Of a stretch of 64,000 bases of DNA, positions 14,634-54,600 are shown one piece after another. The stretch is from Ascidiella aspersa (taxonomy: Eukaryota). Position 1 is the first letter of the stretch. Each line of letters opens with the position of its first letter. The DNA lies in NCBI GenBank assembly GCA_963924565.1, contig OZ004615.1:3286001-3350000 (forward strand), read 5' to 3'. The notes below the pieces were generated by a model, which did no database searches, was not told the DNA's origin, and worked only from the letters and a program-made list of their open reading frames with translations. Both the position numbers and the translations under genes were made by a program.

Positions 14634-14660
14634 TGTTTTACTCTGTAGCGCTACTCATCT

Positions 14661-27600: not shown

Positions 27601-30600
27601 AGTCCCAGTGGTTTCTTACCGTTTTTACCCCGTCGACTATTTTAACCGCTTTTCAAAACTCAATTCTCATTTGAGAAAAAAAAAACTGATAAAGTTGTGC
27701 GTTCTTAGACGGTCTCCAGCTATAGGACCGAAATAAGAACAACATCAACAACGAACTAAAACACAAAAAAGACCAGAATATGACAGAATAAGTCGTAATA
27801 ACGTCTAAATCACAATAAGTCCTAAATCGACCGGAATAACACCGAAATGGCCAGACACCAAAACGGCCAATGCCACGCTGATGACCCCGTTCGCCCCACA
27901 CCCTCTCCCTGCAGTTCCAGGCGTTATTTTGGCTTTTAGGCATTTCCGATAAATTTAGAACTTATTCAGACGATTACTGGGTATTTGGCTTTATTATGTC
28001 GTCGGTTAATACTACATGGTTTTATAGATTGTTCTGCTTTAGTTATTATTGCTCTTTGGGTTTTATTGCGTGTTTCCTCTTAGACTGCCACTGCCGGATT
28101 CTACCGCACCCGTATCTCGATGCCCAACTCCCGCCAGCTGCAAATTGTCAACATGAGGATTGAAGACGCCGGTACCTTTGAGTGCGACGTGCATTTTCCT
28201 GGACGACAGGACGCAGTACAGTTGACTGAAGTCAGTGTGGTGAGTGCCGTGTCTTGATCAGTTTTGTTTTTCGTTTAGGTTTAGGGAGTACGGCGACGGC
28301 GAAAATTGCCAAATTTTCACGGCGAAAATTGCCAATTTGGTGGCTCAACTATCTCGCTTTTGTGAATGGAGCGGATAAAACAAAGCGGCAACATTGTGAA
28401 TCCGCTTGGGCCTTTAAACAACTTTTTTGGGTTAAATTAGGGTAGATATACGCTTGAACATTTAGTGGAATTTTCAAATCGGTCACTCATTTCAATAAAA
28501 TTATGCTTCCTTGAAATATTACAGGAAGAGATTAATTTAAAAAAAGCACAGAAATCTGGGAACGAGATGTTTCTCTGCCTTTATTGGGGTGGAATATGGG
28601 AATCTCACCCTTCGCGTGAGAATCCCTCACAAACACAGTTACTCAACTTACATCCCTGTCGCCGAGCATATATGTTGCAACTACGCGAGTTCGTCAAAAC
28701 AGCGTAAAAAAGCGCACGTCATTTCGGCAGGTCGTTGCCCTGTGTGACGTCACAGTCAGTCGAGCGTGGCGACGCCGGTTGTTTTTCGGTGTTTGGGGTT
28801 AAGGGACCCCCTGGGGTTGTTGACAAGGGGTTCGCAACTTCTCACGATATTTTGCTGCTTCGCCAAGAAGCGACAAAACATTTCGTTTGATTCACCCTTA
28901 AAGGCCTGTTTACACTACAGCTGCACTGGGCGTGAAATTATTTTCACTGCAGCTGCAGTGAGCTGCGCTGGGCGTAAAAATCGCTCCAAACGTAACGTTT
29001 TACTATTGCTGCACTGGGCTTGAGTTTAGCAAAGCGTGGAAATCGCTCCAAAGCGTATTTTTTCCAGCTGCACGGGGCTTGAGTTTAGCAAAGCGTAACT
29101 TTAAGCTAGCTGCAGCTGCTGCACGGGGCTTCAGTTTAGCAAAGCGTGAAACGCTCGCCACAATAGAATTTAAATGCAAATTACGCTTTGCTCAGCTCAG
29201 TGCAGCTGTAGTGTAAACGGGCCTTAAGTCAGCAAATCGCCTTTGATTGTGTAAGTGATAAAAAAGAAAATCCGCTAACTTTCAACCATATTGGTTGAAG
29301 GTTTTAGTTAACTTATGGAAGGAAAATCGAATCCCATACAGAAGTGCGTAACATTTTAAACGTTTTTCGACTATCTCTTTATACATTTTCAACCATGTTG
29401 ATATACTTCTGTTAGGCTTTGATATTCCTAGAACACGTAAAAATCGCTGGCATATATATATGTATATCGGTTGCTTGTTTGTCAATTGTTCGAGTTTAAT
29501 TTTAAAAGTTCAAATTATTAAAGCAAACGGCATTTTGTTGCAGTTTGGGGATTTTTACTAGGCTCTGTAGTGTCAGTTGTAACTTCAATTATGAACAACT
29601 ATGGCGATTTAGGGTTATAGGTCATGTTAATTGGTCATTGTAGAGTGGAAATTATGCATTTCGAATTAGATATTTTGAATTAGTCTTTCTTCGGCATTTT
29701 TCGTTTTAATCTAGCTTTGATCATTTCTTGAATTATTCTGTACACGTTGGTGGTATAGCGACTATTTGTCAATCTGGTTTAATGCTGTACAGTATACATG
29801 TTCGTCTAGCTTCGGTGTTTTTTACGCCATACTGTTTTCGAAATTATAGTGTTTATCAATTTTTTGTGTTTAACCGCAAACAGCGTTTAAAAGAGGTAAA
29901 AACGTATTAATATCAAACCATTAGCCAAACCCAAATTCTTACTTTTTTGTCCAGGACTCCTCCCCATCAAACTTGTACTACGAGTACATCCCCAGGAACA
30001 GCAGTGTTATATTTCACTGGACGAATCCGACAGAGCAGTTTGATTCAGTGCGGCTCGAATATCAAAAGGTATATCGGGGAAAAGGATAATTATTTCTCCT
30101 AATGTGTAATTTTTTTTTTTTAAGTTTCGTTTTGACTACGTGGTTTTAAACCAGGGAGTCGAACCGTTTGACTTTTTCGGTTCAGGTTCGGTTCGGGTTC
30201 AAGGATTTTTTCGGAATCCTGTTCAGTTCCGGTTCGGTTCGGTTCGGTTCGGTTCGGTTCGGAGCATTTTAAAAGTTCCGGTTCGACAATCGTTATTTCA
30301 AAACCGGTTCATAAAGTTCCGGTTCGGATACGATATAAGTTGCGTTAAATCTAAAAATATGGGGCAATAAATGTAGAGAATAATCTTTGAATTGTAAGTC
30401 ATTTAATCTAAGTTACGTGACGTATTACAAAAACAGCAACTCATTATTGAAATGTCTGAAAAATAAAAATCAACGTTTTTTTAATCAATATTCTTATTTT
30501 TTTTTATAAAATTTCAAACTTAGCATAACTTGACTCTATAAAATACAAGTTGTGACGTCATGCTGGAGAGAACCGCTTTTGTTGACAGGTTCGGTTCAGT

Positions 30601-33600
30601 TCCGATTAGGCTCCACGGTTCGGGTTCGTTTACGGTTCGGAAAAAAATTATCCCAAAACCGGTTCATAAAGTTCCGGTTCGACTTCCTGTTTCAAACAGG
30701 GCGCAGCCATTAATTTGTTTTACATCGGTGATATTTATTTGCTATCAAATCATGACCGTCAACTATAGTCAAAGAAAACGCACCCGTAGATTGAATTATA
30801 AATGTGTGCCAAAATAAATTTAAATACCTAAAAGTCTGACACCACTTTTGCTGTTAGGTATAGTTAATGTAGTCTTGTCTTACTAAAGTTTACTAAAGGT
30901 CAAATTCTGGAATAATTAAGCGCACTTTATAAAGCTATTGATAAGAAAATAAAAAGTAAATTTAACGTGGTTTTAAAGTCGTTTAAATAATGATTACTAA
31001 GTTCATTTAAAAAAAAATCTGTACAACCCAATTCTAATTTATAAGCCTTATTATTTTTTGTGCTGCAATAAAAACTAACACGGCTTGGTTTTATTATATG
31101 GTTTTGCTCACAGACAATTGATTTTTTCATAAACAACAACAGGTTGTAACTGAGTCAGTAACCCCAACGATACAGACTTATCCCGTTTCGACACACACTT
31201 CATCAGCTAATGTGACCGAAATAAATTCAAATAAGAACAATATTAAAAAAAAAAAAAAAAAAAAATGTCGACGCTAAAAATAGGACAATTAGAAATAAGG
31301 ACGCTTTTTAAATACACCAGAGGTATCAAAAACATTAGTTCACAAGCATATCTCAAAATACAGTACTTTACTTTTTCTCAGGTCCGGAGCACACAATGGC
31401 GTCGTGTAACCTTGGGTCGGAACCAGCAGATGTTGGTGGTCTACGGTCGTTTCAGACCCGGAACCCCCTACCAAGTGCGGGTAATCACCCGAACAGGGGG
31501 CCGCGACTCTCAACCCGCCTCCCTACTTTTCACCCTGCCCCGGATCGAGTACTCGGGTACTTGTTTTTGACGTTCAAGGCTTGTACACGTGAATCCCTCC
31601 AAGCAGTGCTGTAATGACTTACGCGATGCCTTGGTTTTAGATTGACAAGTCCTTTGAGTAAAACGACTTAAGTTTTTTGGCTTAAATAACTAAGGGGTAA
31701 AATAACTTGAATTTTATTGGTAAACTTGACTTGGACTTAAGTCATTTAGGCAAATGACTTACATCAATATTAAATAAATAACTGCCAACTCAGTTATAGA
31801 CAGACTTGCACAACTAGATAATTGTGTTGTAGTTCGGCGAATTAGATCAATTTGTTGCTAGTTCCAAAACTAATCTGATTTGTAAATTGTTCAATTACAC
31901 TTAAAATGCGGTTGTTATTAGTTGATTAAGAAATGTTTGTCAGAATCAAACGCAAACAATTTTTTTAGAAAGTTTTGCAATTTCACAGTTCGAAAGTTGT
32001 AAATCATAATCTTTAAAGGTTCTGCGTTGAATAACATTCAATGCAAAAAAGCTCGACAAAAAATGTTTTATAAAAAATTATTGAAAAAGTAAGCTCTATC
32101 CGTTATCATTGGTCAAAAAACAGCTTCAGAAGGACTAGATCACAGTTGTTGAACATATATGTGTGTGTAGGTGTATCTTTCATTGAACTCTACACATTTA
32201 TGAAAACAATGTCATTTACGTTATAAACGTCGCCGTAATTTTGCTTCCTACAGGCAGAAGAGTGACAGGCCAAGGCGGTCAAACCATTCCCACGGCCGAC
32301 AACCCTCTGGCGCCACCAGGTGTTAGCGAAGACCAGATAACGCTCAACTGGTACGGCTCCCCTATCCCCGACACACAAGTCGACGGTAAGCTACATTTTT
32401 GGCGCTGTCATTATAGCCAGACGAAATGGCCATTTTTTGTTAAGCTGTCTGTTCGATGTAAGTAAATTTTGCTGAAACACTTTTTTTTATAATTTTTTGA
32501 GTGCGTTATTAATGACTGAGATATATATGTTGATGGAAAATAATGAAAACGATGGGGGGGGGCACGGTGTAAAAAAGGTTAGGAACCCCTGTTTTAAGCA
32601 ATACTTAAAAACTGCAAATACAACGAAAATACAAAAAAATCTATTTCGCAACGCATTTATTTTGCGTAACTATATAGTGATCTGCCCTTTTTGAAAAAAA
32701 ATTTGTTTAGTTGCTTTCGAGATTTTACTCAAATTCGTTTCTACTCAGGTTGGATCGTTGTGTACGAGGACACGCAAACGGGGGTTTCCCAAAGCGTGCC
32801 GCTGACGTCAGGAGTGACGTCATACACGGTGCGTGACCTCGAATCGAACACGAGATATCGCGTCACCCTGTTTGCCCTGGTTGGCGAAAATCGGATTGAG
32901 GTGGATATATTCATTATTGTTTTTTATTTTTGTTACTATAGGGTGGTTATTAACCTTTAGGTAATTAATCCCCACTTAGGGGTATTTTAAAGTTTTTACT
33001 TGTTAATTTTAACCGTGATTTGGGATGCTGGTTTTTGCCAATAGAAAAATAGTTGTATTAGCTTGTCGTTAGTTTACATGATTTAATATTTGTCCGAATT
33101 GTCATTATTGGGTCGTTCTAGCTCCTCAATCGGATTGAAGGTCAATTTTTTTTAATTTTTTTTATATATGGTCACTAAAAATGAAAATTATTTTTAATTT
33201 CATTTTGTTTTGTTGCATACTGAGTGATTTATAACAAGTTCATTATTCTAAACGATTTTATCGAAATGCCTAAAAGATAAATTGTTCAGTTTAATGAGGC
33301 CTAAATGATATTTACAGAATAAGTTATTCTTAATTGCCTGATAAAAGTATATATTTTGGAAGCATATATGCCTTTTTCCTGAAATTAACTTTGATTAAAA
33401 AATACTTAAAAATAGTTGTGCAAGTCTTAGTCTTTTGAAATAATTTTAAATTCATAATTTTGAATCGTAAGTCAAACCAAAATGTGTTCGCTTTTTATTT
33501 AATCATTTCACAATAACGCAAATTTTTCTCGACGTAAGTTGTAGCATTGCTTTCAGATCGGCTCTACCGAAACGACCACCGAGTACACGCCGGCCGAGCT

Positions 33601-36600
33601 TCCGTCATCAATACGTACCGATGACGTCACCGACCATAGCGTGACGTTGACCTGGGAGGCGCCAGAGAGTCCAGTGACCGGATACGAAGTTGCGTATAGG
33701 TCAGTGAATGGTCATGTATCCTTTATGCAGGGTTGTGGAGTCGGTTAAAAATAACCCGAGTCTGACTCCCCAGTTCCGAGTCCGAACCAAATATGCGATT
33801 TCGTCGAGTCCAGAGTCAGGCTCAGACTCTCCACAGCCTGTATTCCTCCACTAAGCGTAACTAAATAAGGTGGATATTCAGCAATCCACTTCTAGGGGCT
33901 TCATATAATTCATCCACTCACACAACTTGGTGGAAAATATTCACCATATGCTGTTCCACCTTTACAATTTACAGTTTGACAATCTCCTAGATGTAGGAAC
34001 ACAAAACCAAGTAAAAATAAACCCGTGTAAAAATGCACCTTAAAAGGCACATAAAAGGACATATTGCTCAAAATTACGTCATTTAGGTTATAGGGTAAAT
34101 CAGTTGTTCTCAACCGTGGTCCCGCGGCACTCTAGGATGTCATTTTTAACGCTAAAGGGTGCCGAGAGTTTTTTCAAATAAATTTTCAAACGAAATTTGA
34201 CATTTCAAAACAATTTTCGTATACGATAAAAGTGCCAATCATTAAAAAGGTTTTACCAACCTTGTTACACAGATAATGCTGTTTCAATCTAGTTTATAGC
34301 AACGTTACAGTTAACCACTCAGCAAAAATACGAGCAAGGGTGCCGCGAACGATTTGTGATTTCTGCAGGGTGCAGCAAGCCAAAAAAAATTGCGAAACAC
34401 TGGCCTACATCAACAAAAATAAACCTTGCCGCTGTTTCATCTGCCGCTGTTTCATCTGCCGCCCTAGGGGGAATTAGTGAAACAACCCGGGCACAAAATA
34501 ACAACACTTTGTTTTTGCACCGACGCAGAGACGTAAGCTCAACCAACAATCGATGGAGAAAGGTGCGCGTTCCAGCAAGTCGTCAACCCGAAATAACGCT
34601 GCAGAACCTTATGCCGTCCAAGATATACGACGTCCACGTCACTCCCATAACGTAAGGCTTGAGTATTTTTAGATGACACTGAACTGTTTAGCGGGCCGAC
34701 AAAAACAAAGCCAAAAATATTGTACGAAGGAGGACAACGGAAATGACAATTGGATAATTTTCCATTCTGATGTATTGTTTTTGGATTGAAAATAACTTTC
34801 CCTAGATATATAACAAAGCTATTTTAGTTAAGTCTTTCCGGCATGTAACGCCCTTGTACAGATTATATTCCAAACGTTTTTTCTTTATTTTTTTTCTTAT
34901 TGATTTAGTTTTCAGAACATAGCGTATATTCCAAACCTGCTACACGCCATTAACATTCTAAAAATGACGGACACCAACTTTTTGTTGTTCTTTACGACCC
35001 TTAAGCTTAAATTATTCTCGTATTTTCGTAACATATCGATTTGACCTAATTTCCTTCTTGACTTTTGTCTGAAAAACAAAACTCAATTGAAATTTAAAAA
35101 ATCCAACCCGAAAAAATTGTACAACACAGGAACGGACAGCGTGGCGTTTACACCCCCGTCACAGTTTCAACCCCCGACGCCGCCCCAGTACAGCCCCCCG
35201 CCAATCTGGTGTTCGAAGATATCAGGAAATCGTCGGCCACGGTAGTTTGGGACGCTCCTCTGGTTGGGGATGTCAAACACTACGTGTGAGTAAAGGTTTT
35301 TTTCTTTTGGACAGAAGGCCCAATTTTTGGCGCTCTTTCACTATTGTACGTAAAAAAAAAAAAAAAAAATGTTCTTCAAATGCCGCATACCACAAAGACA
35401 TATTGTTTGGTTTAGGGTGCGGGTTAGCGTTTGGTTGAGGGTGGGTCAAGTTATTATTAATAATAAACATAATATTACTTGACCCACCCTCACCCAAAAG
35501 CTACCCTTTTTTTTGCATAACTTTTCACGTACAATAGTGAAAGAGCGCCCAATTTTTTACTGCATTTTCCATTACTGTGCAAGGAAACTGAACCGGGTTA
35601 AAGTAACAATCCTCGCTTACAAAAAACATGTTTTTTAATTTTTAATTTTTTGACACATGGCTTTTTTGCTGAAAAAAACGACACACCCGTAAATATATGT
35701 GCGAGATGTTGCTTTGTCGGCCTTATGCCCGATCATGCGAACCAAGCGATTCCCGTTAAACACTACATGCAAGTGAAAGTTTTTTTTTTATATGAAAATT
35801 ATTTTTTTATGGAAATGTAATGGTTATGTTATTCTATTTTTCTGCTGTCCAATAAAGTGTAATAGCTAATATGGGATAATTAGAGAAATTTACTGGAAAT
35901 CAGTTTGGAATGTTCGGATGTTCAAGACTAACTTTAAAAAATGCAAAAAATATACACTTACAGTTTGCCAGTTGCTGCGAATTATTTTTGGGTACAATTT
36001 ATTTTTAATTTGCACAATCTGGTTAATTGGTTACCGGAACGAATGTTTTGTGGCTTAAGTTGTTATTTTGATATTTGCACTTTTCTATAAATGTTTTAAA
36101 ATGACATCTTACACGAATTGGCCGTTTTCGCTTTAAATGGTAGCTAAGTTTTTTAATCTAAATTTACAAATAAAATTTGATTACCTTTCTTACTTTTTTT
36201 GTCCCTGTTTCGGGTTAGGTGTGGCTAATGGGTTGGGTTAGAAATTGGGGTTAGGTTGAGGATAAAGTTAGGGGTTACGTTTGGGGTCCGATGTTTATGT
36301 TGTTTAAATTTCAATCTTACGGCTGGATTCCGTTAAGGTTAAAATATAGGCATAACAGAAAAAAAAATCAACATTGCCCCCTTCAACAAACGACCTTTCT
36401 TGGCAGGGTGGAATTCGAGCCGCTGCCCAAGACGGAAAACAGTATTCCATACAGAACGATCGCCTACCAACCGATCTACTACCTCAGTGGCCTCCTGAGA
36501 GGCAAGCCCTACACATTCTCAGTCAAGACTGTAGCTCCCGATGATACTGAAAGTGAACCACTAACTGGTCGCTTTACCACAGGTGAGAATAGCCCTGTCG

Positions 36601-39600
36601 CTTTTACGTTGTTCGAAAAGTTTAGCAAATAGGATACACAGGGGTAGACAGGGACGGACTAAGGGTACTGTAGGCCTAAGACTGTTTGCTAGAGAAGGGC
36701 CTAGTTTTGCAAACCATAGCTACAAAAAGGAATAAAATTACATACATGAAAAATTAAAATTATACAATAATGAAACTGTGAGATAAATGATTAAATGATT
36801 AAACAATAAATGAGTTTTTTCTATGTGATACAGAGACAAGACAGCATAAATGGAACGATTTGTTTATCTACTCACACACAAGGCACATATTGACTCGACT
36901 TAGTCATTCGTTTTTACGCAAAAACTTGTAGTTGCACCTGTACTGGATCTGTATCACCATCAGCCTTGCACAAATTTAACCTTATTGAGGGCCGAATTGT
37001 TCCAGGGCTTAAGGCTATAACCATAGTGGCCTAATGGTTAATCTGGCACTGGATACTAGTAGATCAACTTTAAATACTAGTAAATCAACTCACAGGGATA
37101 ATTGGAAGTGCTGTGATGACTTAAGCCTTGACCCAAAAAGTGCACTTATATCACTGTTTTCAAATGACTTCACTTGAACTTTTGGACATAATATTTTCTG
37201 CATATCTAACTTTTTTGGCCATAATAACTTTACTGGAGGTATTTTTTACATTACCAAAACTCGGCAAGTTTTAGTTTTAGTAGTTCAATGTTTAATTTTT
37301 GTGTCAGTTACAGGACTCGAGTGTAGTTGATTTAATAAAGTCTCGACTTGGATTTGACTTGATTTTTTTTAAATATTGACTTGTTTAAGACGCTGTTAAC
37401 TGGCAATAATTGCTTCAGACGAGCGAGCGAGCGCGCGGAAAATCCCAACCCTGCGTTTTTTGAACGACGCGTGTTCCACAAACGCGACAATCGCCCCAAT
37501 GTATACGTAACAAATGTTGCATTTTCCCTGTAGAGAACAAGGTGTGTCAGGTCGACGGGAGATGGCGAGGACATGAGGAGAAGTTCTACAAGCTTAATCC
37601 TGCCGGTTACATGCAGAACTGCACTTGCACCAGACTGCCTAGCGGGGGTGGACGTTGGACATGCGATCCTATCGGTAAGAGTTCATTCACATGTGGTTTA
37701 GTGCTCTTTTAGGTGTAAAAATTCTGCAAATTTAAAATTGAAAAAATAGAGTCTAAATACATTTACAGAGTAGACAAAACCTTTTTGTTTAAATTGTACA
37801 ATACGACATCACTGAGGTCTCATAGACCGCATAAAGTCTACCTAGCACCAAGGGTTTAACGGAAACCATGTTAAGAACGCCTTGACTAGACTGAAAGACC
37901 TCGACAGATAAAGAAAATCAGTCGATCAAAAAGCAAAACAGTTTGAATCTCAACTCAGGCTAGTTGTTTTTTAACTTGCCTTGCATGCATCTTGATTGAC
38001 AGGTTTGGGTAATCTGTCGAAGGCTTTCCGTGAATTATGAAACATAAGCCGTTTCCGTTGTTCGAAAAACGACTTCCGAAGAGCTATCTCAGTTGTTCTA
38101 CGCGCATGTGAATGTATCTTCATTGGCTGAATGTGATTGTGTACTATAGACCATCTTAAATATAAATTTTATGCAGCAAGCAATTGTGTCACAGTTGCTT
38201 GTCGACTCGCTCTCCTCTGAGCCCTGTATAGATACAGTGGTTGTAATGTCCACGCATCTTTTATCCCTTGATTACGATATTAACATTTTCAATGCAATTC
38301 TATATAGTCTGCCTACACAACGGCATACAGCACGCGGTTGGCCAAACCTGGACCCAGCTTTCAAACGACGGAAATTACAACCAGGAGTGCACTTGCCTCA
38401 AGCGCGGCTGGAGATGTGTAGGAACTGGTGAGTTCGCTATGTAAAGGGTTCACAAAAATCCGCAGTAGTATAGTTCATTGTGCCCTGTTGGACGTTTCGA
38501 ACTTTTATGTACGTTTCGCTGGAGTGATTTAATTTGACCCATTTTTAGAAAGTTTAATTAGAATTGGAATCTAAAGCTTTGAAAAGCGTTTCATACTTTT
38601 TAACGTATTTTAAACGGTAGTCTAGCTTCCAACTGAGGTATATACTTGACTATACCTTTCTAAAGATATTTAAAGTTGAAAAAAACTACAATAATAAACG
38701 GCTCTGTATTTTTGATTACGGCCAATATAACAGTTGGCCAATTGAACGTAACCATTTTAAAATTTGACCGTGTTTGTCCTATTTTTGTTCGACTTTCTAA
38801 CCGCCAACGTTTGTTTAACAATGTTTATGAAGAATGAATTGCAAAAGCCAAATAGGTCGAACAGATCGACATCATCTTGATGACGTTACGTCTTCATCAA
38901 GATGATGTCGATATACGCGACGTTTTTTTGCTTTGCAATTCATTATGAAGAAAAAACTGCTGATTAAATTGTGTATTGTACCCGTTTTTTAACTTATTGC
39001 GTACAGGTCCGGCTGGTTTTCCGCAAGGCGATCTCTTGCGCCACCCAGAGGGCGGTCGACTGACGCTATCGTGTCCGCACGAGGTCACTGGCGACTTCCG
39101 CCCCACGATCAAATGGTACAAGCTAAATGGCGACGTGCGCACACTGCTGTACACTTATCACGGCCAGGGCGGTTTCGGCCACCAGGTAAATGGAACTATA
39201 CGACGTATTTTGTGAGGTTTAACGGCGCTTTGGAACAAATTCTAAAACACGGTTTTTTAACTTTTTTTCGCGGAGCCCAAATACTAAGCTCAAGTTAAGC
39301 AGCGAATCTCTGGCACCAAATAGACTTTTTGTAAGGCTTACTAAGAAATAATTTCGCAACACTGGTATTTTGGAAATCCCTACAGGCTTTCGCACAACCG
39401 CGCTTCATCAGGTCGAAGTATAAAACTTTATATCTATATAGCCTATCTTACTTACAGTGTAGGGCGGAAAGGGCGCGTCGTATTCCTGATATTCAAGCAC
39501 GTATCGCGACACCCCCTCGATGTTACTTGGTTGGTCCCACTCTACGGTGGCTTCGGTGGCTCTGACGAGTAGAAATGAAAGAAATTAAAATGATTTAAAT

Positions 39601-42600
39601 ATGCTTTCATTTATACATTGACCTAATGAAGCACAGTTATGCAAAAGCTTGTCGAGAATTCTATACAATTTGTCTATATATAGTGCCACCTGATTCCTCT
39701 ATTTAGAATTAGACAAATACGGTCATTTAGAAAGATCATAACTCAGAATTCAGGTTCATAAAAATTTCGTCCCACATTTTATAAGTCAATTACTTTCTCA
39801 TTACATTAACAGTCGATTACTTCTCAAGTCTCATTAAAGATAGTAAAAGTTCGTATCACAACGTCTTGATCAAGATGATATCGATCTATTCGACCTTTTT
39901 TGCTTTGCAATTCATTTTCGAACTACAAAGATTATTATTTTTAAATTTCTCCAACAATATTTTAAAACATGTGCAAATTCTTGAAAGAAAATCCAAAATT
40001 TCTACAAAACCGCTTTCAGGAAACGACGGCTGGCGACCTTTCGGGAAGGATGGACATGCCTAATGAGATAGAGCTGGAAATTAACCCGGTCCGTTTGTCC
40101 GACTCTGGTCGTTACGAGTGCGTGGTAACCTACAGAGGCCACTCTAGTGCTCCGGTCACCCACAGGGCAAGAATATTGGCGGTGAGTAGCGATGTCCGAT
40201 AATATCGGATCGGAGCCGATACCCGATGCCGAGTTAGAGTATCGATACTCGAACGATAATTGGGCGGTATCGATAAATGCCCGATACTTTGCTGATATCG
40301 CCAATCGTCCGATACTATGCTGGTATCGGTAATCGTCTCATAAGAGCTGTAGTTGTATGATCTAAATCTCGTTTAAAAGTGCCACCCGATATACAGACAA
40401 TCAACTACTTCTGATGAATAAATTACTATTCAAACCGACAACCAACGAGCAAATTTGACGAATTTTAAAATACCTGACTGTTAAAACTGCTTTTAACTTG
40501 GTTACAATGAAAGATACGCACTCATACGTGTTTAACAACTGTGATAAATGCCTTCTAAAATCCCTTTTTGATTAACGATAATGGCCTACGTATCATAGTA
40601 CACCAAAAGCCATTGCAGACTCACCGAATCAGTTGATCAATGTGAAAGCAAGGTAGGCTAAAGAGAGCCTCTAGGGTGGTGGAGCTCCCCTGGGCCGGAC
40701 TTGACTCCACGCCTTTCCCGGGGTTCATGGCCACAACGTCGACGTAGTAGAGTGTGTCAGGGAAAAGGTCTGAGTCAGAGGATAGGTTAATTTATTTATA
40801 AGTAAGTTGAAAAGTTAGTTTAGTTTTTAATGATTGGATCGTTTTGAAGTTCGCGGGAACGAGGGATTATTGGATCATGGTTTTTTTCGAGGCCGTCCGG
40901 AGGTCGTGAGTTCGAACCTCGGTGCAGGCTAGTTGTTTTTCTAGCCTACCTTGCTTGCATCATTGATCGAACGATTCAGTGAGTCTGCTATGGCTTCCGA
41001 TGTACACCTTACAAAGTTGAAGTTTAACCTCGTTTTGTTGCACACAGACCTACAACTTGGGCGAGTGGATTCCAGCGCCGCAAGTGACCAACTCTCAAAC
41101 CGACACAGTCGAACTCACGTGGGACGCACCTGACGAAAGAGTAACTGAATACATCGTGAAGTACACGTAAGTAGAACAGGCCTTATGGATGCTCGATTAT
41201 TTAATTGCGACACCGATACCCGATATATTTTGGACAAAACGTATGGCGATCCGATACCAAATGACGTCATTCATATGCTCCAACAAGCCAAATAGGTTAA
41301 ATTTAAACGTTCAAACGCTTTTTTTCATGTTATTTGGCCCAAATTTGCTTTAAAGTCAAAAAGTTTAGTTACCTCCTGTTGTTAACCTCGGCTACTATCA
41401 TTTTCCATAACTTTACCTTTCAAGTTTGAATCGGTGCGTTGGATCTCGCCTTGAAGGTTTGAAGCGAATTAGGTTTTAAGAACTAGGAATGTCCGATAAT
41501 ATCGGATCGGGTTCGATACCCGATGCCAAGTGCTAGTATCGGTACTCGTCCGATAATATCGGATCGGAGCCGAAACCCGATGCCAAGTGCTAGTATCGGC
41601 ACTCGTCCGATACTAGGGTGATATCGGTGCCGATTCGATACTAAATTAACATAGGTATTTTGACTTTGTCACCCAATGCAGGAATTTCTACGTTAAATAG
41701 TATATTCTCAAAAAAACTAGGCCAACAACTGATGGTGGTTAAATTATTTCAAACTATCAAAGATGTTGGCCATACAACCTAAGAAAATTAACCTTAAACG
41801 TTTTAATTAAAACTATTTTGTTTATTTAGGCATAGTTGTGACGTCATTGGTATATGGTAGGTGGCACTATATAAAGACAAAATTGTAAAAGCTTTCGCAC
41901 AACCGTGCCTCATCTGGTCAAAGTGATAATTTGTCTTTATATAGTGCCACCTGATTCCTCTATTTAGATTTGGACAAATACGGCCATTTACAAAGATCAC
42001 TTTATGTTCGTTCACGTTTATATTTTTACCAGCAACGTGGATCGTGAAAACGAGGAGCACACAGTCACAGTGAAGAACCCCTCGGTCGAACTCGACCAGC
42101 TTTCGCCTTCAGCCACCTACCGCATCACCGTCATACCTGTCGTGTGAGTTTTCGGGCTTTTGGTGGTGTAGACGTGCGGGAACGGCGTTTGCGCACCGCA
42201 TTTTGCCATCGCTTTCTACTAATGCTTGACACGCGGTACAAAACTTGACGTCATATTAAAAAAAACGCTTTGCCACAACTGAGTATACCAATATTTTAAA
42301 GCAAGTAATATACCTATTTCAATACGATTGAATTTTTAACATCGAATATTGAAAATCAAAATCCAATGAACTAAGTGATTTGGGATAAACTTAATTCTTG
42401 TTGAATAAAAGCAACAACGGTTGTGTTTATAAGATATTCCCAAAATGGCATAAATGTACTCGCTTGATAAGAAATATTTTCAAATTTTAAGGTAAAACAA
42501 TTCAATTGCCATTAAACTTAATGGCTTATTTTATATCACGACCGTAACGTTTTTAAAGTATTTTTTTACTTATAGCGAGCCACTTTTACTGTTAGTGGCA

Positions 42601-45600
42601 ACTCGAATACATCCGAATATAAAATTTTAGTATTTTTTTAAATAGCCTCATGGACAACTTACTACAATGAACCCGTGGCCAATTAATTAGCCTTGAACTG
42701 TTTTCTAAAGCCAACCAAAGACCTAACTTTAACCTAACCCTTCACAAGGGACGGAACACAAGGCGAATCCACCACATTCGAAGTTATCAGGGGTCAGGAC
42801 GGTCAGTCGGTCATTGGTCAGGTTCCAGGGGGTCCAGGCCCACTCGGGGACGACGAACCTCTCTTCACAACAGCCCCCCAGGCCACGACGGCCCCAACCG
42901 CGGCCCCTCTCGTGGCCCCAAGACCCCCTTCCCGGCTCCAGTTTGAATCGAAGGGTACAACATCGGTCACTGCAAGGTGGACAACACTTTTCGGACCAAC
43001 GGTGGACAGTTACAGGTTGGTTGGTTGGTTGTGGTAATGACTTATGCCAATGTCATATAAGTCAATGACAATGAGTGACTTGATTCAAGTGCACTTATGT
43101 CGCTATTTTTAAATAACTTGACTTGACTTATGATAGAAAAAATCGATAAAAACTCAATGATTATGTTAAAAGATTTAAATATCTATAAAGTTTCTTAAAG
43201 CAAAGTTGTAAACCTATGTTATTTTTTCGAACAGAGTGGAATACAAGCCGGTAGGTTCTCTCGAAGCACCTACAACACTAAGAACACGGAACAACTACTT
43301 GCGAGTGACGAACCTGGAGCCTGGTGAAAACTACACTTTCAGTGTTCGTTCGATTCAAGACGGTCTCGAAAGCATTCCTATCACTGCGATAGTCTCTCCG
43401 TGTAAGAACCAGATCAATAACCCACTTAATAATGTTTGTCAGAGTTATTTTTTATTAGGTCTGAGTCCGTTGAAAACAACCCGAGTCCAACTCCGGGAAA
43501 ATATTTAAACTCGAGTCCGAATCCCGACTACAACTCGACAGCTTGTATTCCACTGATTAACGCAACTAAAATAGAGTTAATATACAGTAATTCCAATAAA
43601 GAGGTCGTCATAAAACTCACTCACATATAGTTGGAAAAACATTTAACTATTTGCTATTCAACTTTTACAACTTGCAATTTGCGGCAGCCATACTTTCAAG
43701 TAATGGGATTTGCATAAGCCTTGGTCTTTATTTGATGCAAAGTTTTCGTTGTATTTTTTTGAGTCTACGAAACCAATCTTTATAGTGTAGAAGTCGGCTG
43801 ATTATGAGTTCTCATTAATACCTTGTTGCCCCGATCAATCACCTAACTTCTACAATGGGTAAACGGGTATACATAAAAGTGTAAAAAGTTTTTTATCAAT
43901 ATACCAAATTGTAAACAATGGTTTTACGATTTATCTGTCACTAACAGTCGGCGTAAATGTCATGCCAAACTGTCAATAGACATGTCTTTCATCATATTGA
44001 GCTCTGAAACCACCAACGACATTTCCAATTTACGACAAAACCTGCACTGGCCACTTGCCATCCACCTAAACACCAACTGTTCATGGCTAAATCGGAACTC
44101 GGTTTTATTTTGCCTTCCATTACATAAAAAGCAAATAATGTTTGCAAATTAAAAAAAAATAGTTTTTTTTTCTAACATCATTTCTCCAAACTGCCCAAAA
44201 AACATTTATTTTCTTATACTTAACACTGAAACCCACAATAAAATTTAACAATTACTACAATTGGCTACTCGCTATCTACCTAAAAGATAACCATTCATAT
44301 CAAAATCGGAATCTCGATTTTGTTTTGCTCTCCATTCTATAAAGTACATAATATAGATGATTTAGAAATGTTTAGAAACTGTGTTTTCCTCCAACAAAAT
44401 TTAACTCAGTTCTAGAATGCTACCACTTTTATACAATAGCGAAAACAAGTTGTTCAAAATGAAATTGCAAGAAATAAGCAAACATTGGGAAATAAATATA
44501 ATAATAATACCGGACCCACACAAACCTAAACGCTAACTCTCACCCTAACCCACATATTGTTATCAATATAAACCCCCGGACAAAAATATGGTAGGATTCT
44601 CAGTAAAGTACCCAAATATTGTTCCATACACATACCGCATCGGAAGCATACTGGCTTCTGGCTATCTACCTAAAAGCAAACCATTAGTGGCAAAAATCGG
44701 AATCACAATTTTTTTTAGCTCTCCACTTCCAACAACATTTAGCGCTGTTGAAGAATCCTACCACTTTTTCTAGAGTAACGAAACGAGTTGTCAAAAAAGA
44801 AATTGCAAATACTTGCCCCAGCCAACCCAAACCCTTGCTCGCACTATATCCCAAATATGGTTAGCAATATAAACCCGGATAAAACGGGGTAGGATACTAG
44901 ACCAGCGCTAAATGTTGTTGAAGGAAGACACATTTTATAAACATTTCTAAGTCATCTATAACATTTCTCCTACGCAGATCGCATCGGTAGCATTTTGGTG
45001 CAAGTAGAGAAGAATCGACGTCATTACGAGGTCGGCGACGACGCCACGCTTCAGTGCCGATATGACGTCGATACGCCAGGCAAGGCTGTGATCACGTGGT
45101 ACAAGCTGGGAGTCGGTCAAGCCAAGGACCTGATAATGACATACGACACTGCAACAGGGGCTCAAGTAAGTGTTGATCTTTGTTTGATCTTGATCGTTGT
45201 TTTTGAGTGCAGACACTCAGGAAAATTGTTGTATTTATTCCAATGCCAATGAAGGATTCCTACACATACGTGTACAACGACTGTGATCTCGACTCCCGGG
45301 TCCAGAGTCTTACACCGGCCAAATGTGCAAGTTCGTCGAGTCCCAGTTGGGCTCAGACTCTCAAATCTGTACGACATGACGAAAATCTTTAAAACGATTT
45401 GCGCATTGAAATGTTTTTTAATAATTTTTAAATTTGTTTGTGTTTTAAAAAGTCACGAAAGTCAAGAAATAAAACAATTTAGTATTTTTTTTTGTGTTGG
45501 CCCTGGCACTTGTGGAGTTTTGTTTTCAAATTACCTTCGAAAGAAAGTCGAGTGGTCTTATTTGAGGGTTCAAAACCCGTTTTTTTTATAAAGTGTGTCG

Positions 45601-48600
45601 CAACCCTGTTGCTATCGCATTTCCCATATTTCGTGTTTATCTCTTAAACCAACATTTCTCTCCATACTTTATTCACATTTTAAACACAGACGGTGGAGCC
45701 AGGGGAATTCCGGGGTCGAGTGACGTCATCTGACGGCAGGGACTTCCGCATCGCCGACCTGGGGCCGACCGACGGGGGCACCTACGAGTGTAAGGTGACT
45801 TACCCCACAGGAGGGGGCTCGGGACGCACCGATGTCGTCTTGACCGGGAGACCTTATCCAGTAAGTGCAATGTAGGGTAAAAACACAAGTTTATTTCGAT
45901 GTACTTTTAAGTGAAACTTTGAAGTCCAAAAAGTTGCAATTTCCAAAAAGCAAATGCAATATTTGCTTAAAACAGCGTTTCTACACAGTCTTTGAATCTT
46001 CAGAAGTCTTTCTATGTTTTAATTGATTTCTGAAAAGACTTTAAAAAAGGGTTTGGAGAACCCTACATTTTTTCAAAATATTTTGATTTCATTTTTTCGT
46101 GTAGCTTCAAGTTATGTGTTAAGTAAGTGCGTTTCTGAAACAACTTTTTAACTTTGTTTTATTCTGCTGACCATGGCATTTTTACTGTTTTGCTTTTTAA
46201 TTATACTAAAAAACGTCGAACGATCCTATTTTAGTTCTTCGAAAGTTTTTGAACGACAATTATTTTCATAAAACTGCTTGGCAACCTGTTAAATCGGTCG
46301 TTCAAATTTACCATTTTCTTGCATTCGTGGGATAAACATATAAATACGGCATAGTATCTGCTAAGTATGATTACAGCAGAATGAACCTTCGGATTTATTT
46401 TCCTTGTAAACTTGTGCATTTAGTGAGAGTAAGCGACTTTGTTTGTTGTTCAGGTGATCTACACTTCGTCCAATTACAGCGACTGGCAATCGAACTACAC
46501 ACTTTCGTGGAGAACTGTTGGACCCACTCCCGACAGTTTTATACTCCAAATCAGAAGGGTAAGCACAACACCAAACGACGTCTTTTTCATAATCTTGTAA
46601 GCAAATATTGTTTATATTTAAACGTAAAAGAATAATATTGTTAGTCCACAATTGCGTTTCAAGCACGGTTATTTTCATTTTATTAGTGTTTAAACTATGG
46701 TACAAAAAAGAAATTGTCACTTGTTGTAAACAATAATCAAAGTTGTCTTTGGAATAACAAAATTTGCCTGAATCCGAATGGTGAAAACAAAGAATTTTGG
46801 TGGCATATCAATGAGAAAGATTAAACTAAGTTCTGTAATTTGTTGCAAACAAGTTATGAAAGGACTGAAGTCCCAGACAAATCATTTGCAAAATACCTTA
46901 AATCAAGTTCAAGTCATTCTCGAGAATTAGATAGTCAGAAAATTGATAAACTCACCCAATCATCAGCGTTATTTGACGCAGAACCCCCCAAACTAAACAA
47001 ATATTGCAGCAAAGTGTTTTACGCAAAATAAAAAGAAACTTAAGTCAAGAAAATTCATTTGAAAACAGTGTCTTAATTGCATGTAAGCCAAGGCATTTGA
47101 AAACAGTGACTTAAGTCAAGAAAAATCATTTGAAAAGAGTGACTTAAGTGCATTTAAGTCAAGTCATTGGAACACAGAAACTTAAGTGCACTTAATTTGA
47201 GTTAAGTCATTCGAAAACAGTGACTTAAGTCATTACAACACTTATCCCAACATTACTTTTTTCTGTTTCCAGCGTGGATCAAGCAGTGGAAAGTACACGA
47301 CCTTCAGACCTCCAGGTCGGGCTTCGTCCTTTTTATTCCGTGGCCTGAAGCCAGGACGTACGTACGAGGGCAATATGGTGGCGGTAAAAGGAAGACATCA
47401 GTCACAACCTTCCGACTTTCACTTCACCACAGCGGCATCGGTACGTAAATGGCAATATGCTTCTTTTTTGCGGTTAACTATTATAAAATATGACTACGCA
47501 AGTGACTTGTGAAATAAGTTAAGAAGTCCAAGTCACGAGTTGCAAGTCCCAATTACTATTTCAAAAAATCTGACTATGCAAATTGTGCGGTTTTTATAAA
47601 TTAGTAGTGAAGGAACATTTATTAAGCCAACAACTAAAGATGTAACATTTCTAGTAGATCATCTTCGTTTTTTTCAACAAAAGATCTTGCTTCAAAATTA
47701 ATACCAGAACCCAATAGTTCCAGTGAATCGACCTTATCTTAATGAAAACTATAGCGATTTAAATCATCATGGCTGAAATCACTTGTTCTAATACAAACTC
47801 AACAACCGTTACGTTTGCGATTGGCTACTAACGGAACGTTTATTAGGCAACATTACTGCCATGCAAGATCACAATCAATTATTTCATTTTATTCAAGGGG
47901 CTACCGCACCCACCAACCGGTGTGAAATTGTCCGGTGCTTCCCCGAATCAAGTGAGCGTGACGGTTTATGGCCCAAGGCAAATATTCGACTACTACAGGA
48001 TCCGATATGGCCCTAAGACCCCGGTGCCAGGCGTACCAGATAGAGTAAGTATAAGTAGTTAAATATTGAAGCACATTAGCATATAAGGGATCTCCGGCGG
48101 ACAAAAATATTTATAAAAAGATGTTCACTTTACAAATCGGTTAGTAAAAATCAGGTACAAGAGTACTGTATCAAATCATTTTTTAGATTAGAGATAGGTG
48201 AAACATCATATTCGTTTAACTAAAAATCGCGCAAAAAAAAAAAAAAGGATTTTTTACATCGATTATAACAAATCAGATACAAGAGCATGAAATAATTTCT
48301 TATAGTTTACTTGGCAACTACAGATACGTGAAACACATTCGTATAAAGTAATCTCTTGTGGAGACAAAAAAAGAAAGATTTTCACTTTTATGAATCCAAT
48401 TGCATTACAAGGGTCAACCTACCAGCATAAACAAGTAAAATGTTAAAAGACAAAATTAATAGTGCGTTTGAGTAAATTAATAGTTAGGGAAATTTTGTTA
48501 AAACGTTTAGACAATTTTGTTCAACTATTTCCAGCTTAAAACTGCGTTTTTAAGAAAAAAAAAGCTATCTTATTTGGCATCGGTTTCGCACCGATACAGC

Positions 48601-51600
48601 CCTAGTATAGGACAGGAAACGATAACAATAACAACTGATTTTGTTTGTCTGTATAAAAAAAAGAAAAGACGACCCTGTACTATATGTCATCCATTTTTTC
48701 GCAAGCTTGCTAATTTTGATAAAGTTTCAAAAGCCAATGTTTTAATTTGTGATAAAAGAATAGAATTCGCCCGAACTCCAAAGTAGTGCAAATCAACATA
48801 TAAACATCAAGGGGTGCAAGCAAAAAACAGCATTCCGGCCAAATAGCCTATAGGCACCGCCTGAGGCTATTTACCCGGCTAACAAAGTATTTTAAATCAA
48901 TTTTCGAAAAAACATCGAAATTATGCTAACACGAAAGATTAAATCTAACACTATCATCACCCAAACTCCAACCCTAACCCAAATCACATAAAAAGTTACA
49001 AATTGGTGCAAGCGTAATGCAACGATTCGGTCAAATAGCTTCTCAAAAAATGTTATATTCCAGGTTGTACAAGGCAGGAACCCTTCGGACATTCTGACCT
49101 TGGACAACATGCTCCCCGACACCCAATACGTCATCGATGTGACTACAGTACGCGGCAACGAAGAATCGGAACCCTACAGAGGAGCCCTGACTACACCGAA
49201 GGTATAAATTGACTTTGAAACTGTTAAAACAATACAACTCAAAGTTTAAAAAACAGAGTAAAATCAGGATCAGACATTTTTTTAAAAGGAATATATATTT
49301 CGCCAATACTGGCATCGTCAGTTCCTTAATTCGAATGAAAACGTCTGATCTTGATTTTACTCTGGTTTTTAAACTTTGAGTTTTATTGTTTATATACGCG
49401 TCAGCGGAACAGTGATCGACAAGCAGAAACCTCCTGCCAATGATTTTGGATTCCATAACGAAACGCCCTTCCATAACGATAAATATAGTTTTGTAACAAG
49501 TCTGATAAACTGCTTGTCTGTTGGATTTTTTTATTTGGTTTAAAACAGTGCTTCTCAACCTTTTAACCCCCTCAGAAATAACAAATAGATTGCGGCACCC
49601 CTACAAGATTTTCCGTAGGTAATTTACTAGAATGTCACAATAAACGGAACTGGAACAGCATCAACTCTACACAACCTAGGAAGTTATTATTGGATTTATT
49701 CCACTCTAATTTTACAAAAAAAGTTGTAAGAGTAAGGCAAAGTTCAGATTCTTAAAGATTCTCAAATATCTCTCGGCAGCCTTGAGCATTAAAAATGGCA
49801 CCTAGGGTACTGCGGAACCCCGGTAGAGAACCACTGGATTATTTTTTTAAAACGTTTTACGTTAACGCCAGGCGCGTCTAGTGTGAAACAACCTTAAACT
49901 TTTCAAGAACATCACGTTAACGTCGAGGTTATTATTTTTCTTGTTATTCACTAGGTTGATTTTACAATTCATTAATCTGTGCGACTATCGATTTTTTCCG
50001 GAAGATTTATCATTAATTTGGGGGGCTGAGGGGGCTGAGGGCCCTAAGTTTTCGCTAGGGATACTCGGAGCACCCCGAATTCGGCGTCCATTTTCAAAAC
50101 TTTTTGGTAAAATATGAAAACTTATAATTTACGAATTCAACATAAATCCTTTGTTTTCGGATGAAATTGAAACAATTTAGTTGTAAGAATTTTCGATCGG
50201 CACCATAGTAAATTATACGGAAGACAATAAAGTATTTAATAACCTTTAAACTGCGATAAAGGACTTGAAAACGTTCGGCCATGGTTTGTAAATGCAAAGC
50301 GTTTTTTACTCTCCAACACAACGCCTTATATATTTTATTTTCTTGTTAGCCTCGACCAGCCGCTCCAACCAACCTTAACATTGTTCAACTCGAGCCGAGG
50401 GAAATCACCTTTGACGTCACTGGGCAGCAAGATGACGACACAGAGTATGAGATTAAGTATCGACCAACCACCGGCATTACCGAAGAAGTAATAACTGTAG
50501 GGTTATTCTTTTTTCAACTAAAAATGAGAAATTTTGATCTAAAAATTGAAACTTATTCCGATGGGACATGCACACATATGTGTGTTAATAACTGAGATCT
50601 AGCCCTTCTGAATTTTCTTTGTGACCAACGATTACGGCTTACGTATAATTAGTACACCGAAAGCCTACACTAGCCTGCCCTGCTTGCATCATAGATCAAC
50701 AGATTTGGTGAGTCTGCAATGGCTTTCGGTGTACTTATTCCGATAGGTTTAGATTCTACTCTGTCATGGTTATTACTGCGTATTTGGTTTGGTATGTCGT
50801 TGATCCTTATACTATGTTATAATAGACAGTGTTTTAATGACTTAGTCAATGCATTCAAATAACGGCTTTTAAATGACTTGACTTAAGTCTTGGTAAAATT
50901 TCTTGACCTGATGACTTTAGTCTTTTGGACAAATGGCTTGGGTTGAAATGAAATGTTTTCATTGTACATTTCATTCTAAATTTGTATTTATCTCAAGTTT
51001 TGCATGCAAAACGATTAGATTGTTACATTTTGTTGTTGTTTTTTTAGTTGAATAACTGCTTATGATTGAACGATATTAAAAATTTCAATGGTTTGTCGGC
51101 CTATTATTATATATCAGTGATTTGACTTGAAAATGACTTGCTCTAATTATGACTTGACTGGGACTTGACTTGGGCAACTGATGACTTGACTGGGACTTGA
51201 CTTGTTATTTTTTCAAAAACTTCACTTGGACTTAAGTTAATTCATAAATGACTTGGCTGGGACTTAAGTAAATTCAAAATGACTTGTTTACAACACCGAG
51301 TGTAGGTCCTAATGCAATGGTATTATATTATAATATATGTTGTTCCTTTGTAGGTATTTTACATTGTTTATGCTTGTGTGTGTTGCAGCAAACCTACAGG
51401 ACTGCGCCTGGCGTGAACAGAGTGGTTCTCAACCTGGAGCCGGACACTCAGTACCGAGTTACAGTACAGGCTGTGTCCGACGGTGGTCAAAGATCCCCTA
51501 TTCTAAGCACCTTCATCGAAACGCCCCCTGTAAGTAAAGCATAGCTTTGAAGGGGACATTTTTATACCAGCGCTTTCCCACCGACGACTTAAATATCTAG

Positions 51601-54600
51601 CATTGAGCGAGAATTGATCTCAAACTGATCACAGATGTTCATTTCACCTTTGTCGGAAAATCCTATAGGATGTTAGGCTTTTTTCAGCCTTTGACATTTT
51701 GCTGTTGCCGTAAGGTTTGACTAATACTTTTTGTTTCAATAGAACGCTTTTTTAGTCATATGATTTTTCCTTTACTAGAAAGGCAAATTAATGAATAGTT
51801 TAAGGAGAGTATATTAATGACTTTAACAGCACAATGAAACTGATTACGTTCAAATATCGTAGAATTTACGACCTACCCGCTTTTTTAATGTTTCAAACAG
51901 TGAAACAGCCTTGGGTCTTTAGGCAAACTTTAGAAATATTATGGGAGAAGTGTAATATGACAACACTGAAAGTATTTACCGATGGGCAAATTTCACCCGC
52001 TTACGCTGTGCACGTTCGAAAATTATATAAGTGGAGTTATCTTTGACACACTATTCGGTATTCACGAAATTGTAATGAACAAACACATTTTGGCAAACAA
52101 CTAAAGATCTAACATTTCTAATTGGCCTTATTATTTTCTAATAAGGTTAATTCTAGCTTAAAAATGAATACCAGAAACCAATAGATGGAATAAATCGAAA
52201 TCATCTTAATGAAGACGTTTCGATAGGTTCCGATATGTAAACAGCTTGGCTTTGGCGACCTAATGCTACTCACTGAAATTTTTGTAGGCTTAAAATAAAC
52301 TATAGCAAGATAGTAGCATTAATAAATTAAATTTTAATCAACAGAAACCCATCTCTTCATACTGCTTCCACAATTTTATTCAAATTTTAAAGACATCTTG
52401 CTTAAACCAATTTTAATGAATCTAACCATGTAAAACTACCACAGTCGGCGACCCAACCAAATCAAAAGGCCGTCCAATTTTTTGTCGCGACCTCTTGGTT
52501 CAGAAGCACTGCTATAAGTCAAAAAACCTTTCAGTCGTCCCGCGGTCAAAAAAGATTTACCAAAAACTCTCTGTCAAACTCTCAAAGGATGTTACACTCT
52601 TACAAGCTTGAATAGTTTGTTGTTTACCTCAGTGTTTCGCAACCTTTTTTGGTTTGCTGCACCCTACATAATTTATAAATAGTTTGCGGCACCCTTGCTC
52701 GTGATTTTGTTGAGTGGTTAAGTGTAACGTTACAATGAACGAGATTGAAACAGCACACTAACTGTGCAACAAGGTTGATCCAACAAATATGCTGTTGCTA
52801 CCAGGCATAGTATATTTAAAACAGGTTCCTCTGGCAATATATATTTAAAACAGGTTCCTCTGGCAATATATAGATCCAACCTTATAATTATTGTCACTTT
52901 TATTGTACCAAAAAAATTGTATCAAGAAGCTTACCAATAGAGCTAAAATTGGAATCCTAAAGAATTTAAAATATCTCTCGGCACCTTTGAGCGTTAAAAA
53001 TGTCACCCAGAGTGCCGCAGCATCCCGGTTAAGAACCACTGGTCTACCTCAAAAAAGTTGAAATTAAATGTGCGTTTTTTTAACTTATAGGAAGAACGCC
53101 CACCTTCCAGGCCGACCGACCTCACCATTAGCGAACCTGGAGTAAACAGCGTACGACTCAGCTGGGGCGGCTACACCTCGAATGTGCAGTACTATAACAT
53201 CGAATACAAGCTGGGGTCTGACACCAGGCCCACGGTAAGCTTGTAGTCGTAGAGACCAGTGTTGTAATGACTTAAGTCAATGATATGAGTTAAATGTACT
53301 TAAGTCACTGCTTTGAAATGACTAAACGTGACTTAAGTCGTACTTAAAACTAAACTCAATGTTTCCAAATGACTTGACTTGACTTAAGTCGGTCTTAAAA
53401 CTAAAGTCATTGTTTTCAAATTACTTGACTTAACGTAAGTCGTTTTGGCGAAATGACTTGAGTTGACTTAAGCCTTTGGTCAAATGCCTTGGGTTGAAAT
53501 ATTATGTCTTCATTAAGCATTTTTTATATAAAATTGGGTTATCTATCTTAATTTTTGCACATAAAACAATTTGCTTAAGGACTTAACTTGAAGTTGACTT
53601 GCTTTAATTATAACTGGACTGGCTCTTTATTTAAAAATACTTGACTTGGACTTAAGGTATTTTACGAATGTCTTGACTGGGACTTGTTTTGTATCATATG
53701 ATACTTTAGCCGTAATCGTTGGTCAAAAAGCAGCTTCAGAATACATAGATCACAGTTTGTTGATATGTGTGTGTATGTTTATTGTTTAAACCCATTTTCA
53801 TTTTACCAAACAAAATCAGAGTCAAGATACGCCAGGTGTGCAGCAGTCTGCTGTAATCAATGGACTTCTGCCAGACAGCGATTACACCATTTCAGTGAAG
53901 GCTGTCGGACAAGGAGGTCATTCGCCTAAGGTGGTCGGCACCTTCCATACACGGGTAAGTTGGCCTTGTGTTATTGTGTATATTGCGCTAACTGATTTTA
54001 TAGCTTTAAACGAAAAACGTCAAAATTTGCAAAAACTAAATAGCTTATTGTGTATAGCATCTCAAACTAGAAGCTTTGAATGGGTTTGGGAGCTGTGACA
54101 AAAAAAACAATTTTCAAAAATAACGGTTTAGAACAGATAGAGCATATCAGATACCCGGTTGTGGCACCGGTACGTTTTTTTTTTGTTTTTTTGTTCGTAA
54201 TAGAATACAATTTGTCATTTTTTCATCAAAATGGCCCAAGTTTTTATAATAAGGGTTTGGGGCACTGGCTGATGGAAACTATTCCGCGTTTAGTTTCGAA
54301 CTTGAACCTTAACATTAGTCGACATTCGTCCACGCGAAGGGTCCTCGGTTAAAAAAAGTTTAGGAACCCATGCTTTATCGACTGAGCTAAACAGGTTAGA
54401 AGCGCCCGGAACATATGCACGCCACTTTTGTCCGCTGCATTTTGTGAATAGTATTATGGCAATCCAATAAACCAGTGCTTTATAACCTGTGGGAAGGTAC
54501 CAACTTGTGTGGATGAAAACAATTATAATGCGGATGACATTATGTGTCATATTAACATGTATTACAGTTATAAAATAAGCTTGTGCGCCCACTACAGCTA

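Follow-up and report, generated by a model that had tools for sequence, protein, structure and literature searches.

Antisense FN3-like exon fragments between inverted retro-element pieces in a fibronectin-type gene of Ascidiella aspersa

According to the main text of Tan et al. (2021; PMC8277862), in which Ciona is not named, the single-copy Pack-TIRs of animals arise by a gap-filling process that is independent of transposition and biased in cis, 160 of 281 lying within 15 kb of their parent. Penelope elements, in the excerpted account of Arkhipova et al. (2013; PMC3846280), retain introns and capture sequence between their terminal repeats. Here we describe two fragments of FN3-like exons, each with a piece of intron, that lie antisense between inverted retro-element pieces in introns of a fibronectin gene of Ascidiella aspersa. 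The analysed DNA, hereafter the window, is a stretch of 64,000 nucleotides (GenBank assembly GCA_963924565.1, contig OZ004615.1, positions 3,286,001 to 3,350,000 of the forward strand), and all positions are those of the window.

The first of the two structures, the A-cargo-B unit, consists of the 3' part of a SINE on the minus strand (piece A), the cargo, and the head and body of a SINE on the plus strand (piece B). In the initial annotation it was considered a Pack-like capture of an exon by a fold-back element. Part of this claim stands: intron-containing exon DNA is indeed centred in an inverted repeat, and there is a second case 1 kb away, in the adjacent intron. The Pack element itself does not. 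The arms turned out to be SINE pieces and no other copy carrying this cargo was found, which largely goes against the capture as first proposed; the two arms may derive from a single fold-back event rather than from two independent insertions.

Host gene and position of the insertion

The host gene was assigned to the tunicate-type fibronectins (Table 1). Among the 16 host exon ORFs tested, weak Pfam matches to fn1, Ig and fn3 were revealed, and the domain order agrees with that of Ciona FN; the putative orthology is based on domain order and phases rather than on sequence comparison. As far as the excerpted text of Segade et al. (2016; PMC5006582) goes, the fibronectin of Ciona intestinalis contains 29 FN3 and three Ig modules and shares with the host gene the order FN1-FN2-Ig-FN3, the three Ig domains, and phase 0 following the second Ig domain, then a 0,2 exon. 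Counted from the ORF lists with Ciona FN as template, about 14 FN3 modules are located inside the window. The gene likely runs on past the window end, where about 15 further FN3 modules would be found if the template holds. The intron that contains the A-cargo-B unit is of phase 0; the second Ig domain precedes it and the next FN3 exon follows it.

Several other features of the gene should be mentioned. Two FN1-like exons (37464-37712 and 38247-38444) precede the second Ig domain; at this place the Ciona FN table has two exons with no domain assigned (PMC5006582, seen in excerpt). The host exon at 42738-43037 contains an RGD-containing stretch and a Pro/Thr/Ala-rich linker, and the canonical RGD is reported absent from Ciona intestinalis FN in the same excerpt. 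A direct local duplication at 58977-59227 comprises the 3' end of an FN3 exon, its donor site and the intron start (79%, 113 columns). At 55291-55400 there is a direct upstream copy of the intron end and FN3 exon start of 55699-55812 (72%, 114 columns), within a region of 58-nt tandem repeats, and a further tandem repeat occupies 61595-62000 (146-nt unit, 2.8 copies, 95% matches). The introns are rich in other palindromic or MITE-like insertions (41254-41853, 44352-44960, 49227-49391, 38824-38953, 35422-35506, 25164-25276). Upstream of the fibronectin gene, a plus-strand gene at 8383-14664 encodes repeated Cys-rich modules, which we take to be similar to chitin-binding (peritrophin-type) domains.

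Table 1. Host gene, components of the two elements and related sequences, with positions in the window
Feature	Positions	Strand	Basis
Host gene, tunicate-type fibronectin (FN1, FN2, Ig and FN3 exons)	22233..62245	+	ORFs, Pfam, junctions, domain order
Piece A, 3' part of tRNA-SINE (body 40660-40598, the left arm, and tail to 40505)	40505..40660	-	Window matches
Exon part of the cargo: C-half of FN3, acceptor in phase 1, donor lacking, antisense to host	40665..40769	-	Frame and profile
Intron part of the cargo, upstream of the exon, with AG acceptor and pyrimidine tract	40770..40896	-	Junctions, single-locus depth
Piece B, 5'-truncated SINE head with B-box, and body (right arm 40942-41005), no tail	40897..41005	+	84% to 59510-59448
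5'-inverted SINE insertion	50563..50735	-	Tail and 3' part 50563-50665 (minus), inverted body 50670-50735 (plus)
Older diverged SINE copy, same fold-back layout	37890..38125	+	Self-inverted match 37890-38031, 66% over 147 columns
Second element, left arm: repeat family 2 with minimal-hammerhead core motif	39373..39424	-	79% over 52 columns to 39610-39661
Second cargo: exon of an FN3 N-half, truncated at its 5' end, with donor site and about 40 nt of intron, antisense to host	39416..39572	-	Match to 60.7-kb exon
Second element, right, longer copy of repeat family 2	39593..39741	+	Matches 59234-59310, 41928-41999, 13808-13885
Sense host FN3 exon and following intron, closest source of second cargo in the window	60702..60895	+	Sequence match

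The SINE pieces and their cargo

The imperfect inverted repeats noticed around the exon fragment were recovered (40598-40660 and 40942-41005 align at 84% over 64 columns, with E=1e-13 for a search of the window, and agree in 54 of 63 letters), as was the B-box segment between them, with the B-box at 40910-40918. They are, however, not the ends of an element: the left arm continues for about 90 nt into a SINE tail, and the right arm adjoins the B-box head unbroken. Piece A matches a plus-strand copy at 37970-38125 (69% over 159 columns), and its tail is matched at 50565-50665, 53687-53785 and 32100-32185. The read evidence covers four of the 11 listed runs (X1, X2, X6 and X7). In the DNA run X6, 9,331 reads (loose ends) contain an A-box-like tRNA head ahead of 40897, which is also present in the window copy at 59.5 kb, and 3,072 reads contain the SINE tail after 40996. 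Besides, 209 reads of this run pass in register from the right arm to the left arm, as in an ordinary SINE with head, body and tail.

Five SINE copies end in a TG-rich tail resembling a simple repeat, several truncated copies are found within the window, and the copy number is about 2,000-3,000 (read depth about 2,200-2,900x that of a single locus). The head carries A- and B-box-like motifs; ARAGORN found no tRNA gene. With a tRNA-like head, a high dispersed copy number and a tail, the arms belong to a tRNA-derived SINE.

An 85-bp copy at 50651-50735 with perfect 15-bp TIRs had been regarded as an empty version of the element. In fact it is part of a 5'-inverted SINE insertion of about 170 bp (about 50563-50735), and the apparent TIRs are a 15-nt overlap at the inversion point. 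Outside this insertion lies a 15-nt duplication with one mismatch (50551-50565 and 50733-50747), which scores 13, while a score of 12 was reached by none of 1,500 random pairs. The copy represents one retro-insertion event in which the 5' part was inverted. The older, diverged copy at 37.9 kb has an inverted piece that aligns to the SINE body, and target-site duplications there are at chance level. In total, all three window copies that have both body and tail show the fold-back layout (40505-41005, 50563-50735 and 37890-38125). None of the 15 joints listed, of 468, matched the junction of the 'empty' copy, which gives no sign of an amplified empty family.

As for the cargo, a minus-strand acceptor and a C-half frame had been reported and both were found: an AG at 40771-40770 is followed by a frame of 35 codons (40769-40665) and preceded by about 125 nt of intron. 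No GT donor was found at the end of the exon. Its FN3 character is weakly upheld by the host profile and BLASTP. Against a profile built from the C-halves of 13 host FN3 domains the peptide reaches 10.2 bits, a value equalled by one of 2,000 shuffles, and its ORF is, narrowly, the best non-host ORF of 1,563 on this profile (8.9 vs 8.5 bits). BLASTP aligned it over 35 aa, at 46% identity, with a protein containing FN3 repeats (E=0.004; equalled by one of 200 shuffles). Pfam assigned it only to the NDNF-type FN3 family (E=0.1), with no match to PF00041 at E<=1. The suggested likeness to vertebrate fibronectin was not retrieved: a PDB search gave nine matches at E<=10, all nine to designed repeat proteins, which were discarded as spurious.

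It had also been stated that no sense exon resembles the fragment closely, and indeed no match to it was found within the 64-kb window at the protein or DNA level. Two other origins were rejected. An in-place inversion of a working exon does not suit a phase-0 host intron and a cargo that starts in phase 1 and has no donor, and an interleaved antisense gene does not suit the finding that only the two minus-strand FN3 pieces are present among the 1,563 ORFs. The cargo is antisense, truncated and phase-incompatible, and therefore it shuffles no exon. The second cargo is antisense and truncated as well, so that neither case demonstrates the exon shuffling suggested initially.

The cargo bins had a depth of 6.4-6.7 in X6, as compared with a mean of 6.1 in five unique bins (1.08x single-locus depth); therefore, the cargo is not amplified. 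A second version of it, about 94% alike (11 other letters in 195, with gaps of 22 and 2), was revealed in other samples and keeps exon, intron and SINE head contiguous. It makes up one of the two X1 contigs (depth 47.6 against 45.2), is the sole version at five diagnostic sites in X2, and occurs in 4/7, 5/7 and 4/8 reads at three sites in X6. RNA reads over the cargo in X7 are oriented opposite to those on the host exons, that is, sense to the cargo; at 40759 all four of them carry the letter of the second version (one sample), and at 40811 three carry the window letter. These reads seem to end at the cargo acceptor, judging from the bin depth (2.81, as expected of four reads ending there) rather than from the joint itself.

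The second version is probably a transcribed and spliced donor exon. Alternatively, it could be an allele of this locus: alleles of the flanks differ by about 2-9%, a range that includes its divergence, and the seven X6 reads at a diagnostic site have P=0.74 with one locus, P=0.31 with 1.5 loci and P=0.08 with two. The two versions could also both be alleles of the donor, the insertion being rare. One X2 contig, in which the right arm and host flank stand behind 41 other letters, is a hint of a cargo-free allele.

A word-indexed protein search (proteins <=2,000 aa) gave no match among 10 candidates for the cargo and none among 11 for the host exon at 60.7 kb. When the latter exon was used in a library search, 232 hits were obtained; those listed, 150 in number, proved to be generic FN3 proteins, none of which matched the FN1, FN2 or Ig exons of the host. 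In the excerpted text on Ciona FN (PMC5006582), exons with a phase-1 start within an FN3 domain are encountered from FN3-16 onwards. This pattern would fit, without proving it, a donor of the main cargo located downstream of the window.

A second element and the origin of both

The second element is framed by repeats of another family, family 2, whose arms (39373-39424 and 39610-39661) are inverted and whose depth is about 900x that of a single locus. A minimal-hammerhead core motif is present in this family at 39411, and no such core was found in the SINE family (family 1). Rfam gave no match for family 2, and four pieces of this family folded no better than shuffles; two sub-threshold Rfam matches were treated as chance. 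The second cargo aligns to the sense exon and intron at 60745-60895 (81% over 159 columns, E=2e-31), with 100 of 112 aligned exon letters identical, and matches Pfam fn3 at E=0.018; the FN3 nature of the host exon at 60.7 kb was confirmed by Atlas. The in-gene source of the second cargo lies 21 kb downstream in the same fibronectin gene. Among 284 self-matches, no other represents a host exon copied in inverted orientation outside repeats.

Target-site duplications at the second element and at two other family-2 copies are at chance level. Head-to-head copies of family 2 that contain no cargo were observed at 13742-13907 and 41859-42022. Both repeat families show the layout of two copies in inverted orientation that meet at their 5' ends, one arm bearing a tail. 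It is likely that the second element arose like the main one, from another repeat family and with an in-gene donor.

For the main unit, we give about an even chance to the proposal that break repair placed a low-copy antisense fragment of exon and intron in the middle of a fold-back SINE insertion that was already present. The fold-back habit of this SINE, the SINE identity of the arms and the low copy number of the cargo are established. The first step would be integration of a SINE with its 5' part inverted, giving a head-to-head palindrome with the tail on one side, as is seen at 50563-50735 and presumed for the A-cargo-B unit. We infer that the palindrome then broke at its centre and that its right end invaded a homologous SINE piece. 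The latter would have been located in an intron of an FN3 gene region nearby, probably further down the same fibronectin gene. Copying would have run through the head of that SINE, about 125 nt of intronic sequence and the exon before the end was joined to the left piece. The product would be a single, immobile, non-coding passenger.

Several observations agree with such a course. Pieces A and B differ from each other (9/63) more than the cargo differs from its second version (11/195), as two steps would give. Piece B and the inverted piece of the 50.6-kb copy stop at the same position of the SINE family, and both start at the same SINE position as A. Furthermore, A and B share a letter that is absent from three other SINE pieces of the window compared with them and is found in 1,325 of 14,088 reads of the family (about 9%), a hint of a single source for both; this evidence comprises the one rare site and one further site shared by A and B. 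The X1 contig of the second version ceases to fit at the site of this shared letter. On the opposing side, the junction between A and the exon is bridged by none of the contigs listed, and a DNA template and an unspliced RNA template would leave the same sequence product.

A one-step origin we consider possible but unlikely. In this case reverse transcriptase would have switched templates during insertion, from the RNA of the SINE to unspliced pre-mRNA of fibronectin, and A, cargo and B would have arrived together; in a variant, a 5'-extended antisense transcript would have been copied. Both cargos are sense-co-oriented with, and located 5' of, a minus-strand repeat piece, as template switching predicts (PMC13174262, in excerpt), but two out of two would also be expected from selection against sense exon inserts. 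The hammerhead core motif of family 2 and the introns and captured sequence of Penelope elements speak for a one-step origin, and the lack of this core in family 1 speaks against it. Around the whole A-cargo-B unit there is a weak candidate for an 8-nt duplication (one mismatch); however, its score of 6, the best at the unit ends, is at chance level, being equalled by 216 of 1,500 random pairs. In addition, the X2 contig in which other letters stand upstream of the right arm hints at arms that existed without cargo.

It is quite improbable that the inverted arms are meaningless, that is, that a 345-bp segment (exon, intron and piece B) was duplicated through end-joining beside an unrelated 5'-truncated SINE. 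The abundance of the SINE (about 2,200-2,900 copies) speaks for this, the identity of A and B (54/63) is no higher than that of A and the inverted piece of the 50.6-kb copy (56/63), and the head of B lies beside the intron in the second version too. Chance of this kind would nevertheless have to account for the family position at which B ends, for the letter found in 9% of reads that A and B have in common, and for the same layout occurring again 1 kb away in another family.

A working exon of an antisense transcript from this locus is highly improbable. The open frame, the intact acceptor and the minus-sense RNA reads could be read in its favour, and piece A contains a donor-like GT at 40624, but the frame stops too early for this GT to serve in register with a longer protein. 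Moreover, the RNA reads carry the letter of the other version (4/4), RNA on the second fragment is explicable by the 89%-identical sense exon at 60.7 kb, and no further minus-strand FN3 exon is present among the 1,563 ORFs. Finally, that a Pack-type TIR or fold-back DNA transposon captured the exon and mobilises it has hardly any probability in our view, for although intron-containing host DNA does lie within inverted arms, these arms are SINE internals without a duplication at their ends, the 'empty' copy is a retro-insertion whose junction is absent from the 15 joints listed of 468, and the cargo depth is 1.08x.

The best reading is that fold-back retro-insertions broke and that the gaps were filled from nearby DNA. 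For both cargos, local DNA repair is the likely means of insertion, rather than transport by a transposon that moves genes. The A-cargo-B unit is a genuine structural accident, though of modest weight, and a variation on capture routes already known; a tempting Pack-element call is hereby corrected, and 5'-inverted retro-insertions are shown to mimic TIR elements. Two captures, in adjacent introns and in two families, suggest that retro-derived palindromes often trap local exon DNA here. If this is general, the gap-filling route of animal Pack-TIRs would extend to retro-elements, and the cases could be counted in the full assembly. A stronger version, which we hold to be unlikely, is that fold-back retro-insertions of the two unrelated families, one of them a tRNA-SINE with Penelope-like head-to-head integration, are recurrent traps, genome-wide, for intron-containing pieces of the host gene in which they landed, copied from nascent pre-mRNA. 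If true, such insertions would be the retro-element equivalent of Pack elements and would give rise to internal FN3 duplications in tunicate fibronectin.

Comparison with known systems

In the literature searched, from which most subscription papers were missing so that absence is unproven, there was no report of SINE fold-backs capturing local exons in ascidians. With plant Pack-MULEs, as they are described in the main text of PMC8277862, the A-cargo-B unit shares a gene fragment between inverted arms. It differs from them in having no TIR termini, no flanking duplication and no amplification; the donors of Pack-MULEs are often in trans, whereas here the donors appear to be local.

LINE-1 chimeras formed by template switching and twin priming (PMC13174262, in excerpt) share a 5'-inverted retro-insertion and a cellular RNA sequence located 5' of, and co-oriented with, the 3' part of the retro-element. 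In contrast, the element here is an ascidian SINE with a TG-rich tail, its cargo keeps an intron, and there is no significant duplication around the chimera. The head-to-head insertions of Penelope elements (PMC3846280, in excerpt) are similar in their inverted terminal copies, the optional tail on one arm, a short overlap at the inversion, intron-containing host DNA between the repeats and a target-site duplication that encloses the whole insertion. Unlike them, family 1 bears a tRNA head and lacks the hammerhead core, and its cargo is a truncated exon rather than a whole gene; the likeness is known from the layout and not from a linkage to reverse transcriptase.

The single-copy Pack-TIRs of animals, again as presented in the main text of Tan et al. 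(2021; PMC8277862), have in common with the structures described here the intron-containing host DNA inside a repeat with inverted parts, the single copy, the internal breakpoints and, for the second element, a nearby donor. The difference is in the frame, which here is a fold-back retro-insertion and not a TIR DNA transposon, so that no transposase can move the unit and it is not a member of the Pack-TIR class. In the way it would work, the A-cargo-B unit nevertheless appears to be closest to these single-copy animal Pack-TIRs.
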